Assembly (NCBI GenBank): GCA_951406725.2
Contig: OX597817.1
Coordinates: 65,162,001 to 65,226,000, forward strand
Origin: Octopus vulgaris
Lineage: Eukaryota
Direction: 5' to 3'
Length of the DNA stretch: 64,000 nt
The notes under the pieces are model-generated. The model did no database searches and was not told the DNA's origin. It was given only the letters and a program-made list of their open reading frames with translations. The translations under genes were made by a program, and so were the position numbers. Positions within the stretch are counted from its first letter, which is position 1. Every line of letters starts with the position of its first letter. Below are positions 270 to 59,003 of this stretch, in pieces.

Positions 270-734
270 TTGTAGCACAACTTCTGATACCCACCCCCTT
301 CATTTTGCTCCAACGCCGACCTCGCCACTGGCTGAACTACATATACCACGACAGATAGGAGGATCTCAAAAGACCTGTTCTACTGAATCTAGCTTCAAAC
401 AATATAGAATAACGATATCAGCAAGAGACACTTGAAGTCAGGGGACACGAAAATCGAAAGGTCAGAGGGCGTTACCAACTATCGTTCTTGTAGGAGGCTA
501 GAATTGGAATTTGGCAGGAGTTTAAAATGGAGAGAGAAGACGCTGAAGCTTACTACTGTAGACAAGTGCACTAGTAGAGTCATACAGGGCGCTGTCTTGC
601 AATGAAGTGCGAAGAAAGACTTTCCGGAAGCAGATCCATGATCTCCTGAGACTAAACGGGTACGAAGTACCTTAAAATATTCTGCACTCCACTGACTTAT
701 GCATCAATGGTTGTGTGCTAAGAAGCTTGCTTCC

Positions 735-2844
735 ACTGCGCATGTGCGAATAATTGTGGTGTTCGGCACCAAAGAGGTGAGACATGCTTTTGAAGCCGTC
801 TCGAATTGAAAAATTTTGAAGCTCCATTGTAAGGTAAGATTCTGTTTTTTTTGGGTCCAGTGGGAATTTTTGTTGAGAATTGTTTTTGTACAGGCAGGAA
901 GTCCTACTGGATTCAGAGTTCTGGTTCTGCCTACATGGGGCAAATAATTTTTCTCGCTGAATTGTGAGAATTTTTGTTTGGGGGCGTATTCGTCTTTGGT
1001 TTATGTTGAGTGAATATTTTTCTCACTTAATTATGAGAATTGTATTGTATTGTGCCTTTTGAAGAACTTTAATAATTGTGAGAACTGCTGTTTGGGGGAG
1101 TGTCTTTGCCTCCGAAGATTGAACAATTTGTATATCAATTTTTGTGGAAGTTGTGTTCCAGTTGTGGCGTTCCGGGTTCAACCTAGGCCGGGAGTACCGA
1201 ATGGCCGGAAGATTTTTTTTGCCGTGTTCCTGAACTATTGACTTTCTTCTAAACTTTATTTGACTTTCTCCTTTTTGTTTATTGTGACTTTCTTTTGATT
1301 TCTTTTTTCTTCTCGCTTTTTAAGTTTTATTTTGAATATATTTAAAAAAAAAAAGAAACATGGCAATGAAAAAAGACAAAGTTTTGGAGTGGGAGATTAT
1401 ATCACCCAAAAAGTGGTTGAAAGACCGCGAAGATAGGACAGTGGTGTTGAGAACCTACTCCAAGTCACTCGACACCATCGCCCTATTCGAAAAGACGGCA
1501 ATTGAAAAGGAGTTGGCAGAGTATTTGCCAACAATTAAATTCATTTCCAGGGGTGTCAGATATACAACGGTGTGGTTGCTATTTGATACCCCTGAAGAAG
1601 CTCGCAAATTTGCTAGTCAACCCTTGGAGGGTGAGGAAATTTTATTCTTTCCCACGTATTATGGGAGGAGGTTGACGAAAGCTTGGGTCTGCGGGTTGCC
1701 ACCCGGGATAAAACCCGAGTGGATAGAGGAGACTATCTGCCGGGGTCTGGGTGGCAGCGGGACCAAGCTTCTTAATGTGAAAGTTCTTCCTGCGGCTGAT
1801 TGGGTTGGGTCAAAAGCTGTTTTGACCCTTTGGACCCAATCAACCAATCTGGTTTTTCCAGATTTTTTGAAAATGGCCGGGTGCAGGTACCCGGTGATAC
1901 ATGAGAGTCACCCCCCAGGTGTCATCGGTGCCTAGAGTCCGGCCATATAAAGAAAAACTGTCACCGGGAACAAAATAAGGTCCCGGAGCAGTTGAGTGAG
2001 ACCCCTGTAGAAGAGGGAATGAAGGCGGCCGAGGAAGCGGAGGACTCCTCAAACAGGGGCCGAAAGAGGAAGAAGGTGAGCAACAATGGGTGCTCACCGA
2101 AGGATCCTAGGGATGAGGAGGGGAAGGCGAATCTTCCGACCACGGAGGAGACGCACCCTCCCTCAGTTGAAAAGAAAAAAAAGAGGAAGAAGAAGAGAAA
2201 CGGGACATTGCCGGCAGTCGGTGACATAGTACCGGAATGTCCCGGAACTACGCCGGTTGGGGCTGTGCCACCGGCAGGAGAAGAAACACTGTTGGCGGGA
2301 ACTGTGCCGCCAATGAAAGAATTGGATATCCCACCCCCGGAAGAAGACGAAGTATTGATCTTCTTCTATAGAGGCGGAGAGATTGAAAAGATGATGGAAA
2401 AGCACCATAAGGAAGCACCTTTAGCTTTCACAGAGGACCTCGAATGGCCTCCGCAGATAGCTGTGGAGGCCATAACGTTTGACGTGACGTTTGGTCTGAA
2501 GGAACTCAATGAGGAATATCACTTGTACTCGGGCAACGCTGACACGGAACTCGATTCGATTTTGAAAGAGGCGTGGAGGATGGTAGAGGATGCGGGCACA
2601 AGTTATTTTGAGGGTGAGTTATAAATTGTGGCACTGAGTGACACAAACATTTGATAATAGGCACTTCGCTTTCTTTCTGAACTCCCGGCTGTCAACGTGG
2701 TCTGCTCTGCAGGCGGCTAGATATTTGACTGGGGGTCCGAAAAGAGGAGGAAGGGAAAAGTGATAATGTATTTTTTATGTTTGATTGATTGACTTGTTGA
2801 TATTTATGTAAGTGTAAGGTCTCCATGGCTAACTTGATAAAATA
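735..2844 (+). mobile_element. Non-autonomous Tx1/L1-like non-LTR retroelement carrying ORF1 only
   Basis: Flanked by an exact 15-bp duplication AAGAAGCTTGCTTCC (720-734, 2845-2859). Ends in AATAA. Contains a gag-like ORF1 and no ORF2. Confidence 0.7.
1360..2624 (+). pseudogene. Gag-like ORF1 (probable RRM-like region, CCHC zinc knuckle, basic/acidic tail), ~420 aa with one frameshift at the C-run near 1911-1916
   Basis: ORF 1360-1935 joins the frame of ORF 1992-2624. That frame reads CHRCLESGHIKKNC (CX2CX4HX4C) from 1920 and stays open to 2624. Lys-rich KKKKRKKKR stretch. Layout typical of L1/Tx1 ORF1. Confidence 0.75.
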
Positions 2845-2860
2845 AAGAAGCTTGCTTCCC

Positions 2861-3352
2861 GGAGGGGGGAGCCCATGCTCTGGACAGGAGACGAGGAGTG
2901 GCCTTCGCAGGTGACTACGAAGATCATATCAGATGTCACTATGGTCAGGGTAATGAACACCTTCTCAAAGGACATGTTTAGATACGCCTTGAGGGGCCCC
3001 GACCTAGAGCTGGCGCATTGCCTAAGGGAAGTGTAAGCCAGGTCTGGGAAGAGGGGCTTTGTGTATTGTATTTATATATATTATATGTAATTATTGAACT
3101 ATGTTGTTGTTTGTAATGGACTGTTAAGTCCAAAAATTGAAAAATTGTAAAAGTTGTAAGAGGTTTAATATCTCGTTTTGTGTTTGGTTTTAAAGAACAA
3201 TGTTTTAGAGAAGCAGAAGTCAGCGAGCGCTTTTTGTCTTCTCCCATCCTTATCATCTTTCTTTCATTATCATTCATTTCATTAATGTCCTTGTCCAGCC
3301 CGCAAAGCTACTTTACTTTATGTACTGCTTTTATGGCAAATGTAATGAAATA
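2861..3352 (+). mobile_element. 5'-truncated 3' fragment of a second retroelement at the same SINE site
   Basis: Bounded by target copies 2845-2860 and 3353-3368 (13/15 match). Ends in AAATAAA. Confidence 0.55.
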
Positions 3353-3478
3353 AAGTAGGTTGCTTCCCAACAACATGGTTCCGGGTTCAGTTCTACTGTG
3401 TGGCACACTATAGTCTTGGGCTGACCAAAGCTTTGTGAATGGATTCAGAAGACGGAAACTGAAAGAGGCCCGTTATAC

Positions 3479-3554
<76 letters not shown>

Positions 3555-11895: not shown

Positions 11896-11964
<69 letters not shown>

Positions 11965-12136
11965 AATATTAGGGAATAAATCCAAATTTACAGGGAAAAA
12001 ATCAGATTTAGGATTAAATCCAATTTTATAGTAAAATATTATAAAATATTATTAGAGACAAAACCACTATTTTGCAAAACAAACAAGGAAAGACTTAATC
12101 AATACATAAAATTTTAATAAATAGTCAAAAAAACCG

Positions 12137-12179
12137 CCACTACAATTGTTTCTTGTCTTGATCGACAATCTTCAGGTGG
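12137..12179 (-). ncRNA. Minimal type I hammerhead ribozyme (sense copy of the element)
   Basis: Reverse complement: ccac CTGAAGA ttgtc gatcaa gacaa GAAAC aatt GTA gtgg. Confidence 0.85.
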
Positions 12180-15100
12180 ACTTCCAATCTAAAATATCAA
12201 TATTTTAAAATATAAAAATAATAATTTTAAAATAATTAAAGTATGAATGAAAAAATATAAATATATAATCCATATATAACCTATATATAATCCATATATA
12301 ATCAATATATAAACAATATATAAACTAAAATAAACCTATCAACAATTAAATATAAAATATAAAATATAAAATATAAAATATAAAACAAAACAAAAAAATA
12401 ATAATAATATAATAATAAACTATATATACACCCATACACATATACCTAATTATATATAACCATATCTAACTACATACACTAAATCACACACCTATATATA
12501 TATCCCTATACATACACATAAAAACGTCTAGGCAACTATAAATAAATAAAATAGCTAAATACTTCAACACAATACTTATTCATACTCCCACACACACACA
12601 CATACAACCCACATTCACGCTCTAGAAAACGGACATCACTTAAAATTATGAACGGAGAAATAGAATAAATGGAATTAAAAATTATATTCACTTGGTAAAA
12701 CGAGCACTACTTAAAAATTATGAATGAAACAATGCAATAAAACAACAGACATCGCAAATAGACACAAATTACTACGAATTCCTTAACAAACCTACCATGA
12801 TAAACCAAAACTCATAAAAACATATAATTATAAAATCTCCCTTTACTAAACTCTATAACATACCTATATAGCAATCCCCCTAACCTAAACATTCACACAC
12901 AAATACACACACAATAAACCACACACCCACGACATATACAAATACCCACACCACTTACACATACCTATACATACATATAAACCTCAACATATACTCCAAA
13001 AACCCACTCAACCCCACACAGACAAATAAACACAAAAATTATGAATGGATTCTTTTATAAAACTACCATGATAAGCTAAAACTCACAAAACATAAATGAT
13101 AAAACCTCCCTTTACTAAACACTATAACATACTTATATAGCAATCCCTTTAACCTATACATTCACACACAAAAATACACACACGTAAACCACACACCCAT
13201 AACAAATACAAACACCCACCCCACTCACACACACCCACAAGTACATATAAGCCTCAACATATACACCAAACAAAATTACTTTACCAAGGAACTTAACATA
13301 TGTATAAAAAATATATAACCGCTCTGGAAACGAACATCTTTAAAATAATGAATGGAGAAATGGAATAAATGGAATTAAAAATAATATTCACGTGGCAAAA
13401 CGAACACCACTCAAAAATTATGAATGAAACAATGTAATAAAACAACCAACATCGAAAATAGACAAATTACCACGAATTCCCTAAAAAAACCATGATAAAC
13501 CAAAACTCTTAAAAACATATAACGATAAAATCTCCCTTTGCTAAACTCTATAACAAACCTATATAGCAATCCCCCTAACCTAAACATTCACACACAAAAA
13601 AAAAACAAAAAAACACACACGTAAACCACAGACCCACAACTTATACACATACCTATACTAACTTATAAACCTCAATATACACCAAAAACCCACTCCCTCC
13701 CCACACAGACAAATTAACACATACATCCCAAAACCTAAATAACAAACCCATATACACATTCACACACACACGCAAAACACACACACACAACAGATACATA
13801 TACTCCCTCAATATACGCATATACATACTCACTAAACTCGATATATACAACAATATTTACACACCCACACTCATACAGATAAATAAATTATACAACTAAA
13901 AAGTCACACACAATCTCATATACATAAACACTCCAATAAAAAACAACATTAAATACATCGTAATTAACCAGAATATCAAAAATAACAATATGACATAAGG
14001 AGAAATAAAATACATACTTATAAGTCAGTTTCAAATTATGAAGTGAAATTAAATTCTTAGCCGTTAAAAAAATCAAACCAAAATTACGTTACCATAGAAA
14101 TATAACTTATGTAAAAAAAAAGAATACGCGCCATGGAAAGTAAACGTCATTTAAAATTATGAATGGGGAAATAGAATAAATGGAACTAAAAACTATAACC
14201 ACGTGGCAAACCATCACTACTTAAAAAATATTTTATTATGAATGGATTCTTTAATAAAACTACCATAATAATAAATTATTATATACATTTATGAGCTTTA
14301 GCTCATCTTAGCAGCTCTAACAAACAACTTGCAGTAACCCAAATCTATTCTCGATGCCTGCCTTACTACTACACTATTCCATTCCCAATTCCAAGCAACG
14401 CTATCCCACCACCCGGTTACAATTCCCAACTCCACCCATTCAATCACAATTTCAACGACGTTCACCTCCACAGCGCTACATATAAGCCTCAACATATACA
14501 CCGGAGATTCACTTTCACATCCGTGCGGATGGGTGAGAGTATACATTAAGTGTAGTGATGGGGCTCCCATTACTATACACATTTGTACCTGTGTGGTAGT
14601 CTCCATGTGTATATTCACGCACGGGTATAAATGCAGGGGGTACACGCGCACGGCATGTACGTGTACCCCCTCACATGTACATATGCATGCTAGTTGGGCT
14701 CGATATGTGCAACAATGTAATCGCGCCCGCATACATGCATATGGGCGAGTTGCACAATCAAAATACGCACACGTGTGTGTGCGTTCCCTGGTTGTGCAAT
14801 TCACCCATCTGGGTGTGAGTGGGTGTATGCGTATTGCTGTGGATGTCGAGCTTAATACGTATGTATATGAGTGTGTATTGGGGGGTTGTACGTATTTATT
14901 GTGTGCATGTGCTTCACGCACGTGCGTCCATGTATGGATGAATATATTGGGATTGCTATATGGGTGTAAATTGGGTATGGAGGGGGAGTTTTGTCATTGT
15001 ATGGGTGTAGGTTTCATTTGTGATGGTTATTTGTTGGTGATTTTTAATATGTTCTGTATATTTGGGTTAGTTATGTATTATTCTAGTGTGTATAATTGTA

Positions 15101-15840: not shown

Positions 15841-16943
15841 AAAGTAATTTTGTTTGGTGTATATGTTGAGGCTTATATGTACTTGTGGGTGTGTGTGAGT
15901 GGGGTGGGTGTTTGTATTTGTTATGGGTGTGTGGTTTACGTGTGTGTATTTTTGTGTGTGAATGTATAGGTTAAAGGGATTGCTATATAAGTATGTTATA
16001 GTGTTTAGTAAAGGGAGGTTTTATCATTTATGTTTTGTGAGTTTTAGCTTATCATGGTAGTTTTATAAAAGAATCCATTCATAATTTTTGTGTTTATTTG
16101 TCTGTGTGGGGTTAAGTGGGCTTTTGGAGTATATGTTGAGGTTTATATGTATGTATAGGTATGTGTAAGTGGTGTGGGTATTTGTATATGTCGTGGGTGT
16201 GTGGTTTATTGTGTGTGTATTTGTGTGTGAATGTTTAGGTTAGGGGGATTGCTATATAGGTATGTTATAGAGTTTAGTAAAGGGAGATTTTATAATTATA
16301 TGTTTTTATGAGTTTTGGTTTATCATGGTAGGTTTGTTAAGGAATTCGTAGTAATTTGTGTCTATTTGCGATGTCTGTTGTTTTATTGCATTGTTTCATT
16401 CATAATTTTTAAGTAGTGTTCGTTTTACCAAGTGAATATAATTTTTAATTCCATTTATTCTATTTCTCCGTTCATAATTTTAAGTGATGTCCGTTTTCTA
16501 GAGCGTGAATGTGGGTTGTATGTGTGTGTGTGTGGGAGTATGAATAAGTATTGTGTTGAAGTATTTAGCTATTTTATTTATTTATAGTTGCCTAGACGTT
16601 TTTATGTGTATGTATAGGGATATATATATAGGTGTGTGATTTAGTGTATGTAGTTAGATATGGTTATATATAATTAGGTATATGTGTATGGGTGTATATA
16701 TAGTTTATTATTATATTATTATTATTTTTTTGTTTTGTTTTATATTTTATATTTTATATTTTATATTTTATATTTAATTGTTGATAGGTTTATTTTAGTT
16801 TATATATTGTTTATATATTGATTATATATGGATTATATATAGGTTATATATGGATTATATATTTATATTTTTTCATTCATACTTTAATTATTTTAAAATT
16901 ATTATTTTTATATTTTAAAATATTGATATTTTAGATTGGAAGT

Positions 16944-30204: not shown

Positions 30205-30764
30205 TACTTCCTTGCATTTTAGCACTCTTCAAGGTCCCTGGTTGTGACAGGAATGTTTCGTGTATATATATATATATATACAGGCGTAGGTATGGCTGTG
30301 TGGATACAGGTGCCGGCGTGGCTGTGTGGCAAGAAGCTTGCTTCTCAACCACATAGCTCCGGGTTCATATACATCTACACATAACATACAAAATACAAAG
30401 TTATATCTTGATATCGCTAGTGATAACAATACTCAAAATATATAACAGACTGGAATTGTTGGCGATCACTATTAATATATATATATATATATATATATGA
30501 CAGGCTTCTTTCTGTTTTTTACTATCAAATCCACTCACAAGGTCTTGGTCGGCTTGAGACTATAGTAGAAGACAATTGCCCAAAGTGCCACGCAGTGGGA
30601 CTGAACCCGGAGCTATGTGGTTGAGAAGCAAGCTTCTTGCCACACAGCCACGCCGGCACCTGTATCCACACAGCCATACCTACGCCTGTATATATATATA
30701 TATACACGAAACATTCCTGTCACAACCAGGGACCGTGAAGAGTGCTAAAATGCAAGGAAGTATA
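30203..30764. repeat. Local inverted duplication (30203-30367 vs 30602-30764) followed by a direct copy (30367-30463 vs 31196-31292)
   Basis: Near-exact matches read directly from the sequence. Confidence 0.9.
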
Positions 30765-52899: not shown

Positions 52900-55560
52900 G
52901 AGTAAGCGCTTTGTTCTCACTCTCACGTACATGAGACGTTTGGTGGGTGATTGCATGATTCATTCTAGAGAGAGGATCTCATTACTGGACGAAAAACATT
53001 GCCTTGAAAATTGGTCAAGAATTGGAGAGGAATTCCTAATTGAGAAATAACTTGAAAAACTTGGAAAAAAAATCTAGATCTAATAGCCTTCTGAAACAGA
53101 ACCCAACTACATGATATAGTGGGTAGCAGAAGGCCTAGTTCCCACACACGCAGACGCATCTAAGAACCTACAGAACAAAAGAGAAAACATCAGAACAAAA
53201 CACCGCATTGGTTTCACCACCACCACCACCACCACCACCACCATCATCACCACCACAGGATTTCGAACTGATGTTAACCAAAACAAGTCGGATGTTTTGG
53301 ACAAGAACAGCAGCGAAAGCCGCGCCTTGAAACTAGCAGATGTTTATACCTTGATGGTAGAAGGGTGTCCAGATTTCTTCAGGCGTCTAAAAGCTTTCTT
53401 AGAAACGTCTTGTTCTTCAGCGTTAGTGGGTGACTTGCAAAACCGCTCTAACAGATTCATGTTGCTGACTTGATTTCCCGAATGCGCCACTATGAGCAAA
53501 GAGCAATTGCATCGAACTATTCAGATCATATTTAAAATTGAGTATTTGTTAGGCCAGGGGACAAACATAGTGTAGAATTCCTATAATTGAAAACTGTTGG
53601 TTGTACAGATTACAGATTTGTGAGCTGCACAGTTGATTTTATGGAACGCATAGATTATGACCCGGCTATTGGAAACTGAATGCGTCGTTCCCAGAGCACA
53701 AAGCCTTACACTGATCGAAGTAACGAACTAGTTATGTTGACTGGAGCATTTGTCAGTAACTGGCGTTTGGGCTGCCTGAAGAGAGTGATTTGTGTACCAA
53801 AAAAATAGCGATAAGACAAAAATAGATTGTGCAAGGAAGAAATCGCTTGGTTTGGAGGGTACAGCTTTACGTATATATGTTGACATCTTGGCAGACATCT
53901 ACTACAACTACCAGAAGAACAGGAGAATTTCCAGTTCTGTAAGCCGAGAAACGGTAGCACAGACAAGGAAATACGCGAGCGAGGGGAGCATAATTGATAT
54001 TCAAGACAACACTTTCCTCAGGCGATTCGTTGAAAGTACGGGTTACAAACCTAGCGTCAGTAAGGTTCTGATTAATTTCGATCAATCGAAAGCTATCAAG
54101 CGCTGAACATCGCTACTTGGCGGCTGTTCTCAGTGTAACCTGTCTTAGTCCTGTTATAGAAGTTGAATCATTTCAATGCAATGCAACATTTGCTCGGTTT
54201 AAATGGACACTTAACGAAACTATTTCGAATCATGTGTTCCTGCCATCATGATTTGATGTTGTACTGAAACTCAAACCAAACTGAGAGACGAGAGAAACGT
54301 GTCGGCATATGCAAATGACGAGACTATATTGGTGTTGAGCACGACAGAATCTTAGGTGGTCGGCATCGTTCCAAACATACGAGGTGGTGATAGGAGCAAA
54401 GATTGACCTGGACAATTCGGTGGGTTTGCTTTTCGGCGCTTGGTAAGGTAGGTACACGTCGTCGGGTAAAGTCACGGGATACTGAACAATTGGATCCGTT
54501 TGTTGCCTAGGATTTAGCTCATTTCGAACTTGTAGCTAGGTAGGAATAGGATGGGCTTACGAGCATCATATAGAAATAAACTGCAAGGACACTATCCTTG
54601 AAAAGTTGTGGAAAGGTGGCGAATATGCGCTTTGCACCAGTTATATATTATCCTCAGATCATTGTGCCTTACACTAATTTTCGTCCGACCAGATTGCAGC
54701 GGATGCCCTTTCGCTCCTTGAGTAGGGAACACATTCCACTGCTTAGGGCGCCATCTGCTACCGATACCCTATGTGCTGATGGCTCGGCATTTTGTGATTG
54801 ATGATATACAGACATGCGCTGAGGTTACGACACATACAAAAATTCTTGGATTGTGAATATGTGTGGTTGCCGTTTGTCATGCACTTTTCTCCTGCATTTC
54901 GTCTCTTTGACAGAACTGCAGTTCTAGGTCAGGCAGAGACTTAAACTAGGTACCTGGAATATGGAATGTTGCCAGGTGCTCACAAGTCGGCATTACGCCT
55001 ATTATTTCTATGTTAGGATCAGTTAAGAACTAGTGGTGAGGGAAGGCGACGACGTTCTTAAGGAACACTGGTCGTCGACGAGAAGTAATCGGATGGTCTG
55101 TTCCGGGAACAATGGATAATTTCCAGAAATTCTTGGATGGTGGTCCAAGCGGGAGACATTGCTGGTTCGAAACGATCTCTGGGGGCACAGTAGCTGGGCT
55201 TATTCAATATGCTTGCTGAATGACGAAACTTGTACATACTAACTGCTGAAGTTTTTGTCGAAAAGCTGTGATCATGTGTAGGATGGATCCGGCTGTCAGC
55301 TGAGTCTATTGTAAAAAAAGCACCTCATTGTCTTCTCTTGGCCTGGAAAGGCAGATATTGTTTTCTTTATTTGTGGCCATGATGAAAGAGGTTTTGTAAT
55401 GAGTGTGACTGAAGTGAGTGAAAGTAGGCATATTCCTCTTCGGCCAAGCTCTCATCAACTTTTTCAAGTTTCTCTTGAAGAGGACGGTGAAGATAAGCGG
55501 TAGGTGCTGGCCCCTACGTAGCTTTTGTAAAAGGTGGATGAAAATTGGAAACATAAATCG
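52900..55560 (-). mobile_element. Highly degenerate apurinic-endonuclease-type LINE remnant
   Basis: VLFLQ(E)T-like motif near 55310 and faint RT-like remnants; higher GC than the flanks. Clade not resolved. Confidence 0.35.
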
Positions 55561-55662
55561 CTAGATATCCAACTACACTCTGCAGTACTTTTTTTTATTG
55601 TTCTTGGGTTAAACAAACAAGCTTTTAGTAGAGTCAGGATATTTATTTTGATATACAATAAC

Positions 55663-57603: not shown

Positions 57604-58415
<812 letters not shown>

Positions 58416-58417
<2 letters not shown>

Positions 58418-58575
58418 CGTGGCTGTGTGGTAAAAAGATTGCTTCCCAACCATATGGTTCCATGTTCAGTCCTACTGCATGGCATCTTCGGCAAGTGTCT
58501 TCTATAATCTCAGGCCAACCAAAGCTTTGTGAGTGGATTTGGTAGACGGAAACTGAAAGAAGGTCGTCGTATATA

Positions 58576-58606
<31 letters not shown>

Positions 58607-58795
58607 GCGTGTGTGTTCCCCCCACCATCGCTTGACAACCGATGCTGATGCATTTTATGTCCCTGTAACTTAGCGATCCGGCAAAAGAGACCGATAGAAT
58701 AAGTACTAGGCTTACAAAGAATAAGTTCTGGGGTCGATTTCTTCGACTAAAAACCTTCTAAGATGGTGCTTCGGCATGGCCGCAGCCAGATGACT
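58416..58795 (+). mobile_element. Near full-length SINE family B; other pieces at ~5720-5935, 17330-17480, 29400-29640(-), 30500-30655(-), 37500-37665(-), 46215-46472, 49930-50120(-), 56815-56935, 58800-58925(-)
   Basis: tRNA-like head ggcgtggctgtgtggtaa...gttcagtcc, internal TA/TG microsatellite, tail gaccgatagaataagtactaggctt. Confidence 0.85.
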
Positions 58796-59003
58796 GTTTT
58801 CCGTCTCACAAGGCTTTGGTCGGCTCGAGGCTATAATAAAAGACACTTGCCCAAGTGCCATGCAGTGGGACTGAACCCGGAACCATGTGGTTGGGAAGCA
58901 AGCTTCTTTACCACACAGTCACGCCTGATTTATGTCCGATTCTGAGTGCAAGTGAAAAAGGTCGTTTTAATAGCATTAAAGGAGCCTTTAATGCTGTTAA
59001 AAC

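Follow-up and report, generated by a model that had tools for sequence, protein, structure and literature searches.

An ORF1-only retroelement at a fixed base of a SINE head in Octopus vulgaris, likely placed there by the enzymes of a Tx1-like LINE that uses the same site

The segment 735–3352 of the window (the whole 64,000-nucleotide stretch of Octopus vulgaris DNA analysed here) is very probably an old copy of an element that codes for ORF1 only, inserted at a fixed base in the head of a SINE and likely brought to this position by an autonomous Tx1-like LINE whose enzymes act at the same site. Its components are listed in Table 1. As first noticed in the initial annotation, the sequence AAGAAGCTTGCTTCC is present three times at the locus: the copies at 720–734 and 2845–2859 are exact while the one at 3353–3367 has 2 mismatches. 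When up to 2 mismatches are allowed the 15-mer has 10 matches in the window against 0.10 expected from shuffled sequences, the remaining ones being mostly further copies of the same SINE. Insert 1 and insert 2, which these copies delimit, each terminate in ...AAATA directly 5′ of a 15-mer. The claim that excision of both inserts leaves a normal SINE holds in part: segments 706–719 and 3353–3478 can be aligned to intact SINE copies (58415–58580 and 58770–58925), but “normal” is only approximate, since decay has left the host copy with a short and diverged head, an internal deletion and an identity of about 72%. Comparison of the host SINE head with 25 distinct tRNAs of the genome gave z values up to 6.0 without a clear parent, and no Rfam tRNA match was obtained on one SINE copy of the window. 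The insertion point lies between the A-box-like and B-box-like motifs of the SINE, a position from which the safe harbour and the disruption of the Pol III promoter proposed earlier may be read. Two other arrangements were observed in the window. Two inverted SINE heads with identical 45 bp upstream (30278–30691) form an apparent local inverted duplication, and AT-rich mirror-image repeat blocks ~4.5 kb apart (11896–12424 and 16699–16937) suggest long inverted repeats.

Table 1. Features of the element, its host SINE and the adjoining microsatellite (positions in the window).
Position	Strand	Feature	Observation across copies
706..719	+	Decayed SINE head with A-box-like motif; upstream half of the target	SINE head precedes 26/30 5′ junctions
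720..734	+	5′ 15-mer, hybrid: positions ~1–9 likely target duplication, ~10–15 from the element	
735..1359	+	5′ UTR of unit 1, 625 bp	40/40 scored matches at 88–100% identity
1360..2624	+	ORF1: two predicted RRM domains, CCHC knuckle and charged tail; frameshift at a C run; without ORF2	
2625..2844	+	Former 3′ UTR of unit 1, ending ...TGATAAAATA	Only within the chimera, 18/18 matches
2845..2860	+	Internal 15/16-mer: junction inherited from an older tandem insertion; start hot spot of short copies	
2861..3036	+	Unit 2: C-terminal ORF1 remnant of another ORF1-only family	Donor copies extend upstream
3037..3352	+	3′ UTR of unit 2 and family tail ...GGCAAATGTAATGAAATA	Last ~25 nt resemble the tail of the autonomous partner
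3353..3478	+	Remaining host SINE: true target 15-mer, B-box-like motif (3384–3394), body with deletion	
3479..3554	+	(CTAT)19 microsatellite, at the place of the SINE simple-repeat tract	

Insert 1 carries ORF1 (1360–2624), with one frameshift near 1905–1935, and no reverse transcriptase. Its relatives keep an open frame of 416–473 residues; no ORF2 was found in 19 ORF1 loci of 9.9 kb and tblastn likewise gave no match there. The first 214 residues were modelled with a pLDDT of 83.5 and match tandem-RRM proteins (E about 3e-5, TM about 0.3). A CCHC knuckle, for which the Pfam zf-CCHC match is weak, follows the modelled RRM part, and Pfam searches on the window frames gave nothing beyond a sub-threshold zinc knuckle. 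An ORF1 combining RRM(s) with a CCHC knuckle is a feature of the Tx1 clade. The predicted organization of the window ORF1 fits this Tx1-type layout, and the ORF1 of its lineage is homologous to that of autonomous sister families. The gene is under purifying selection: dN/dS is 0.14–0.22 across distance bins in 29 copies, which were selected because their N-terminal frame is open. Such values would be expected if the element needs the ORF1 product for its own spread. The length of the C run, located at about 1912–1918 in the window, is out of frame in 42 of 100 ORF1 regions scattered over the tree. The frameshifted copies were considered as a possible active sublineage, which was rejected: they are unclustered over the 100 rows (107–117 of 500 shuffles were as low), so that slippage or assembly error at the C run is likely. 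Decayed ORF2 fragments with tblastn matches to Tx1-like ORF2 proteins are also found in the window, at 53825–55573.

The targeting of the SINE head by a site-specific Tx1-like family, proposed from the window locus, was borne out in the genome. Queries for the 3′ and 5′ ends were free of flanking sequence and all searches score top candidates only, so that the samples favour close relatives. At the 3′ ends, 27 of 30 loci continue into the 15-mer and the SINE body; the other three have 11 nt of the 15-mer, a SINE joined further in, and an off-target position at AAGAAG (one each). Upstream of the 5′ ends there is a SINE head in 26 of 30 loci, the tail of another element in 3 and neither in 1. 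Across 41 junctions of the window tail type the last 40 nt of the element vary by 2.1% and SINE positions 16–41 by 14.5%, which shows that these were separate insertions into older SINEs. Exact-pattern counts gave 57,534 empty sites and 419 filled 3′ junctions, an occupancy of about 1% that is only rough because the patterns for empty and filled sites differ. The window tail type is found at AAGAAG sites in 40 of 41 junctions while the youngest ORF1-only type is at AAGTAG sites in all 26 junctions; AAGAAG-type sites account for 16 among the first 100 empty sites listed. Successive element families follow successive SINE subfamilies. A 15-mer belonging to the element itself was regarded in the initial annotation as fatal to this reading. 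The middle copy and positions 10–15 of the 5′ copy do come from the element; the mechanism is refined by this, but the targeting stands.

The initial annotation also held that two independent insertions had occurred at the window locus. This was not supported: the segment 735–3352 moved as a single unit. All 18 matches to the 3′ end of insert 1 (2770–2846), the window included, continue into unit 2 and none is followed by the SINE. The join of unit 1, 15-mer and unit 2, with an identical unit-2 breakpoint, is found in 16 of 30 unit-2 loci at separate genomic places, and free-standing unit 1 was not found among the matches examined. The middle 15-mer is a junction inherited from an older tandem insertion. 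Donor copies of unit 2 that reach further upstream were identified (L168/L219, L169/L220, L222–L225). In other subfamilies the two units are joined via deletions (2786–2968, 2631–2980 and about 2614–3106). A quick tree built from 100 ORF1 regions has the form of a ladder, with full chimeras as its earliest branches and the shortest form as the youngest. Among the deletion derivatives of the chimera is the youngest ORF1-only subfamily. The shared chimeric join and the ladder-like tree argue that a past tandem insertion turned into a master element. They also carry a warning, namely that a triplicated “TSD” within one window can be an inherited fossil.

Two successive independent insertions at the window locus would find a precedent in the true tandem stacks seen at other loci (L062, L078, L084, L298, which has at least five elements, and L332), as well as in 10 of 30 unit-2 loci, where the copy follows a SINE head and has its start at the internal 15-mer; the recurrence of the same join and breakpoint, together with the absence of a SINE body after unit 1, makes this course of events very improbable. 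It is still harder to credit that SINE and insert travel as one giant SINE-headed element without repeated targeting. The SINE head and body do surround nearly every copy, but divergence is ~7 times greater in the SINE bodies than in the element ends, these bodies come from different subfamilies, the identical base is used by unrelated families (one with ORF2), and truncated inserts down to about 40 bp carry duplications (L310). A single unit inserted repeatedly into pre-existing SINEs is the reading retained here. Two further observations concern the same site. At the locus L298 (C7:13469000–13478500) at least five different ORF1-only elements are arrayed head to tail, one 15-mer variant being common to three junctions, and L347, L413 and L298 harbour a second lineage of ORF1-only elements, whose ORF1 is different.

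An autonomous partner, whose search had been suggested at the outset, was found at the same site in the SINE head (L332/L388). It was located via the junction pattern, 20 loci being extended, of which 1 was autonomous. The partner is 5.4 kb long, has ORF1 and ORF2, lies behind a SINE head and ends with the tail GGCAAATTATATGAAATA. The domains of its ORF2 (Exo_endo_phos PF03372, RVT_1 PF00078 and zf-RVT PF13966) and its best PDB match, L1 ORF2p (E=7e-67), are those expected of an L1-group, Tx1-like LINE, to which we assign it from sequence. A quick tree, built without named Tx1 references, places it among sisters from the genome, an Argonauta protein and one unnamed protein. Its best named protein match is from Argonauta (65%), in agreement with the host SINE being, as we presume, of an octopus type. 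All 30 partner copies occupy the site, 27 in a SINE body and 3 in tandem, and they are 97–99.5% alike; among the copies fetched ORF2 is open in 7 of 20 and both ORFs in 2 of 20. Partner and window element have ~29–35% identity in ORF1 and otherwise only a short tail in common, and the window ORF1 lineage forms its own clade (SH-aLRT 100). The passenger lineage is thus old and has likely outlived earlier partners. Its mobilization in trans by the ORF2 of the partner is proposed from the common site and tail. The young partner is found at AAGTAG-type sites whereas the window family is at AAGAAG-type ones. No autonomous element was found at AAGAAG-type sites in 7 dedicated loci and 2 other AAGAAG-type loci, and a partner hunt using zf-RVT matches gave none at the SINE site in the 49 of 150 flanks read. 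A truncated relative (77–79% at the amino acid level) is present at a TTAC site (L417).

The sister families of the partner in the genome use other targets. They belong to a radiation of intact Tx1-like LINEs with differing targets (L228–L238, L279–L297) that include (ATT)n and GAAATTCGGCAAAGAA, one family having varied flanks. In another sister the duplication, GGAAGCGACACCTACTG, is 17 bp long and lies within a tandem repeat, with 5.4-kb arrays. Several sister families insert immediately before motifs resembling the core of the hammerhead ribozyme (CTGATGA...GAAAC); such 3′ flanks are found in L210, L212, L218, L279, L281, L282, L284, L286, L287 and L290. The Rfam hammerhead search gave no match in 12 sister-family loci.

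The 5′ 15-mer is a hybrid. Its origin was followed in 66 full-length or leader-bearing junction pairs (1 further pair was dropped for an indel), a set that omits most full chimeras (2 kept) and in which the window copy is among those omitted. Target variants of the 3′ side at positions 10–15 are present on the 5′ side in 1 case and missing in 34. Differences at these positions are always toward the family's own type, and TAAC stands on the 5′ side of 16 of 17 TTAC-type targets in the young families. At positions 1–9, 2 variants are shared, 6 are 3′-only and 10 are 5′-only (Fisher p=0.08 relative to positions 10–15); this part of the 5′ 15-mer is probably, though not surely, derived from the target. 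In L040 and L243, two copies with random truncations, target variants are shared by the duplicates over 16 and 13 nt. Since variants at positions 10–15 are not copied in full-length pairs but are shared in truncated copies, part of the 5′ 15-mer comes from the element. Some copies fit this scheme less well: the duplicates of the truncated L020, L040 and L336 disagree at position 7, with the change lying on the 3′ side each time, which plain duplication does not predict, and L399 and L415 have duplications of 10 nt only. L267 has a 16-nt duplication followed by a complete second 15-mer. An extra T is found near positions 9–11 in 10 junctions from two families. In the window the 5′ and 3′ 15-mers disagree at positions 4 and 7. 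In younger families (L107, L133, L250, L094) traces of earlier 5′ ends (GGTTGCTTC) persist behind the present 15-mer, and the opening bases of some match a more internal part of the SINE, as though 5′ ends had been stacked over time.

Identical sequences in many pairs, and shared variants at positions 1 and 7 (L096, L125) and 9 (L062/L098 and three L298 junctions), could be accounted for by an ordinary target duplication whose two sides differ by later mutation or gene conversion. We consider this improbable given that differences at positions 10–15 are one-sided, 34 being 3′-only versus 9 5′-only (binomial p=2e-4), in families diverged by 1–3%. A different explanation bears on the short unit-2 copies, which might come from transcripts that had their start at the internal 15-mer under the control of the upstream unit or the SINE head, rather than from cDNA annealing. 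Transcription driven by an upstream unit is known from HeT-A. This possibility is doubtful but is the main rival to annealing: one breakpoint is found in 10 copies whose tree positions are interleaved with those of chimeras (9 changes, a number as low being reached in 231 of 500 shuffles), and tandem arrays are common. Most full-length copies, however, stand alone behind a SINE head without an upstream element, and the extra T at about position 9–11 in 10 junctions points to joining there.

In the mechanism that we favour, cDNA annealing included, the partner's AP endonuclease would nick the bottom strand at ...CTACTT/ACC or ...CTTCTT/ACC, an L1-like TT/A cut. Reverse transcription would begin at the common ...GGCAAA(N5)TGAAATA tail and the top strand would be cut about 10–16 nt downstream. 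The RNA would start with target-like bases, letting the cDNA end anneal with the top strand, so that 5′ positions 10–15 take the bases of the element. Elements would stack in tandem because the site is rebuilt at either end. An ancestral tandem pair (unit 1, junction and truncated unit 2) may have been transcribed through, founding the window lineage, and later deletions that lost the internal junction would have given rise to the younger subfamilies. ORF1 would have been retained because it likely packages its own RNA. A bolder proposal, to which we give little credence at present, is that the target piece at the RNA 5′ end is renewed each time a new master inserts into a new SINE subfamily, which would let a guild made up of one autonomous LINE lineage and many ORF1-only passengers track the SINE, splitting of the A and B boxes in young SINE copies acting as a brake on the host's most abundant SINE.

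The system is one of layered parasites, the SINE, then the LINE and then ORF1-only passengers, whose history is readable from thousands of insertions. Its target copies, in contrast to those in rDNA, vary among themselves, so that each base of the 5′ duplication can be traced at the junctions to the side it came from. This opens to testing the second-strand step of target-primed reverse transcription, which is poorly understood. Intact young copies, 99% alike, offer a sequence-specific AP endonuclease beside sisters that have other targets.

HeT-A is likewise an ORF1-only retrotransposon found in head-to-tail arrays, but it is telomeric and belongs to another clade. HAL1 proper is a mammalian L1 derivative with a poly(A) tail. 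Assignment of the window family to it was rejected, its junctions having no A tail and its ORF1 grouping with local Tx1-like ORF1s; the sequences indicate that the family works as HAL1 does but is not HAL1. Within the available text on HAL1 (half-L1, PMC5753468), those elements are non-autonomous, encode ORF1 alone and have multiple origins, as do the two ORF1-only lineages found here, but the window family differs by its site specificity, lack of a poly(A) tail and RRM-RRM-CCHC ORF1. Drosophila R1, in the accessible portion of PMC2718515, shares duplications of about 14 bp, tandem arrays parted by the duplication and target-bearing transcripts whose annealing gives precise 5′ junctions; its target is rDNA rather than a dispersed, evolving SINE. 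R1A is described in that same portion (PMC2718515) as carrying sequence from upstream of the site, with a 9-bp deletion, whereas the bases carried here correspond to sequence downstream of the nick and replace some of the duplication. The tRNA-gene A box is also a site for Dada elements, which are DNA transposons inserting in real RNA genes according to the available part of PMC3706591. A further likeness is to Tx1-clade LINEs with fixed multicopy targets, for which the accessible sections of PMC4494074 list Tx1 in Tx1D, Tx1-Mar in Mariner-N4_AMi, Keno, Kibi and Koshi. Common traits are an AP endonuclease with RT, a fixed multicopy site that can be another transposon, and non-autonomous passengers (SINEU) carried to that site; the sister families found here, with (ATT)n and other repeats as targets, extend the parallel. 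In the present system the target is instead the tRNA-like head of a SINE, and the passengers code for a protein, ORF1 alone; those sections (PMC4494074) name no SINE among the targets. An octopus annotation (PMC13282606) counts 13 recently active L1-Tx1 families, and the words “target” and “nested” are absent from its available text. Searches of the open literature gave no account of a cephalopod Tx1 family that targets a SINE, though Repbase, Dfam, subscription journals or supplements may hold one. To those already known the octopus system adds a tandem junction that has been inherited, a duplication of hybrid origin and element families that track the subfamilies of a SINE.
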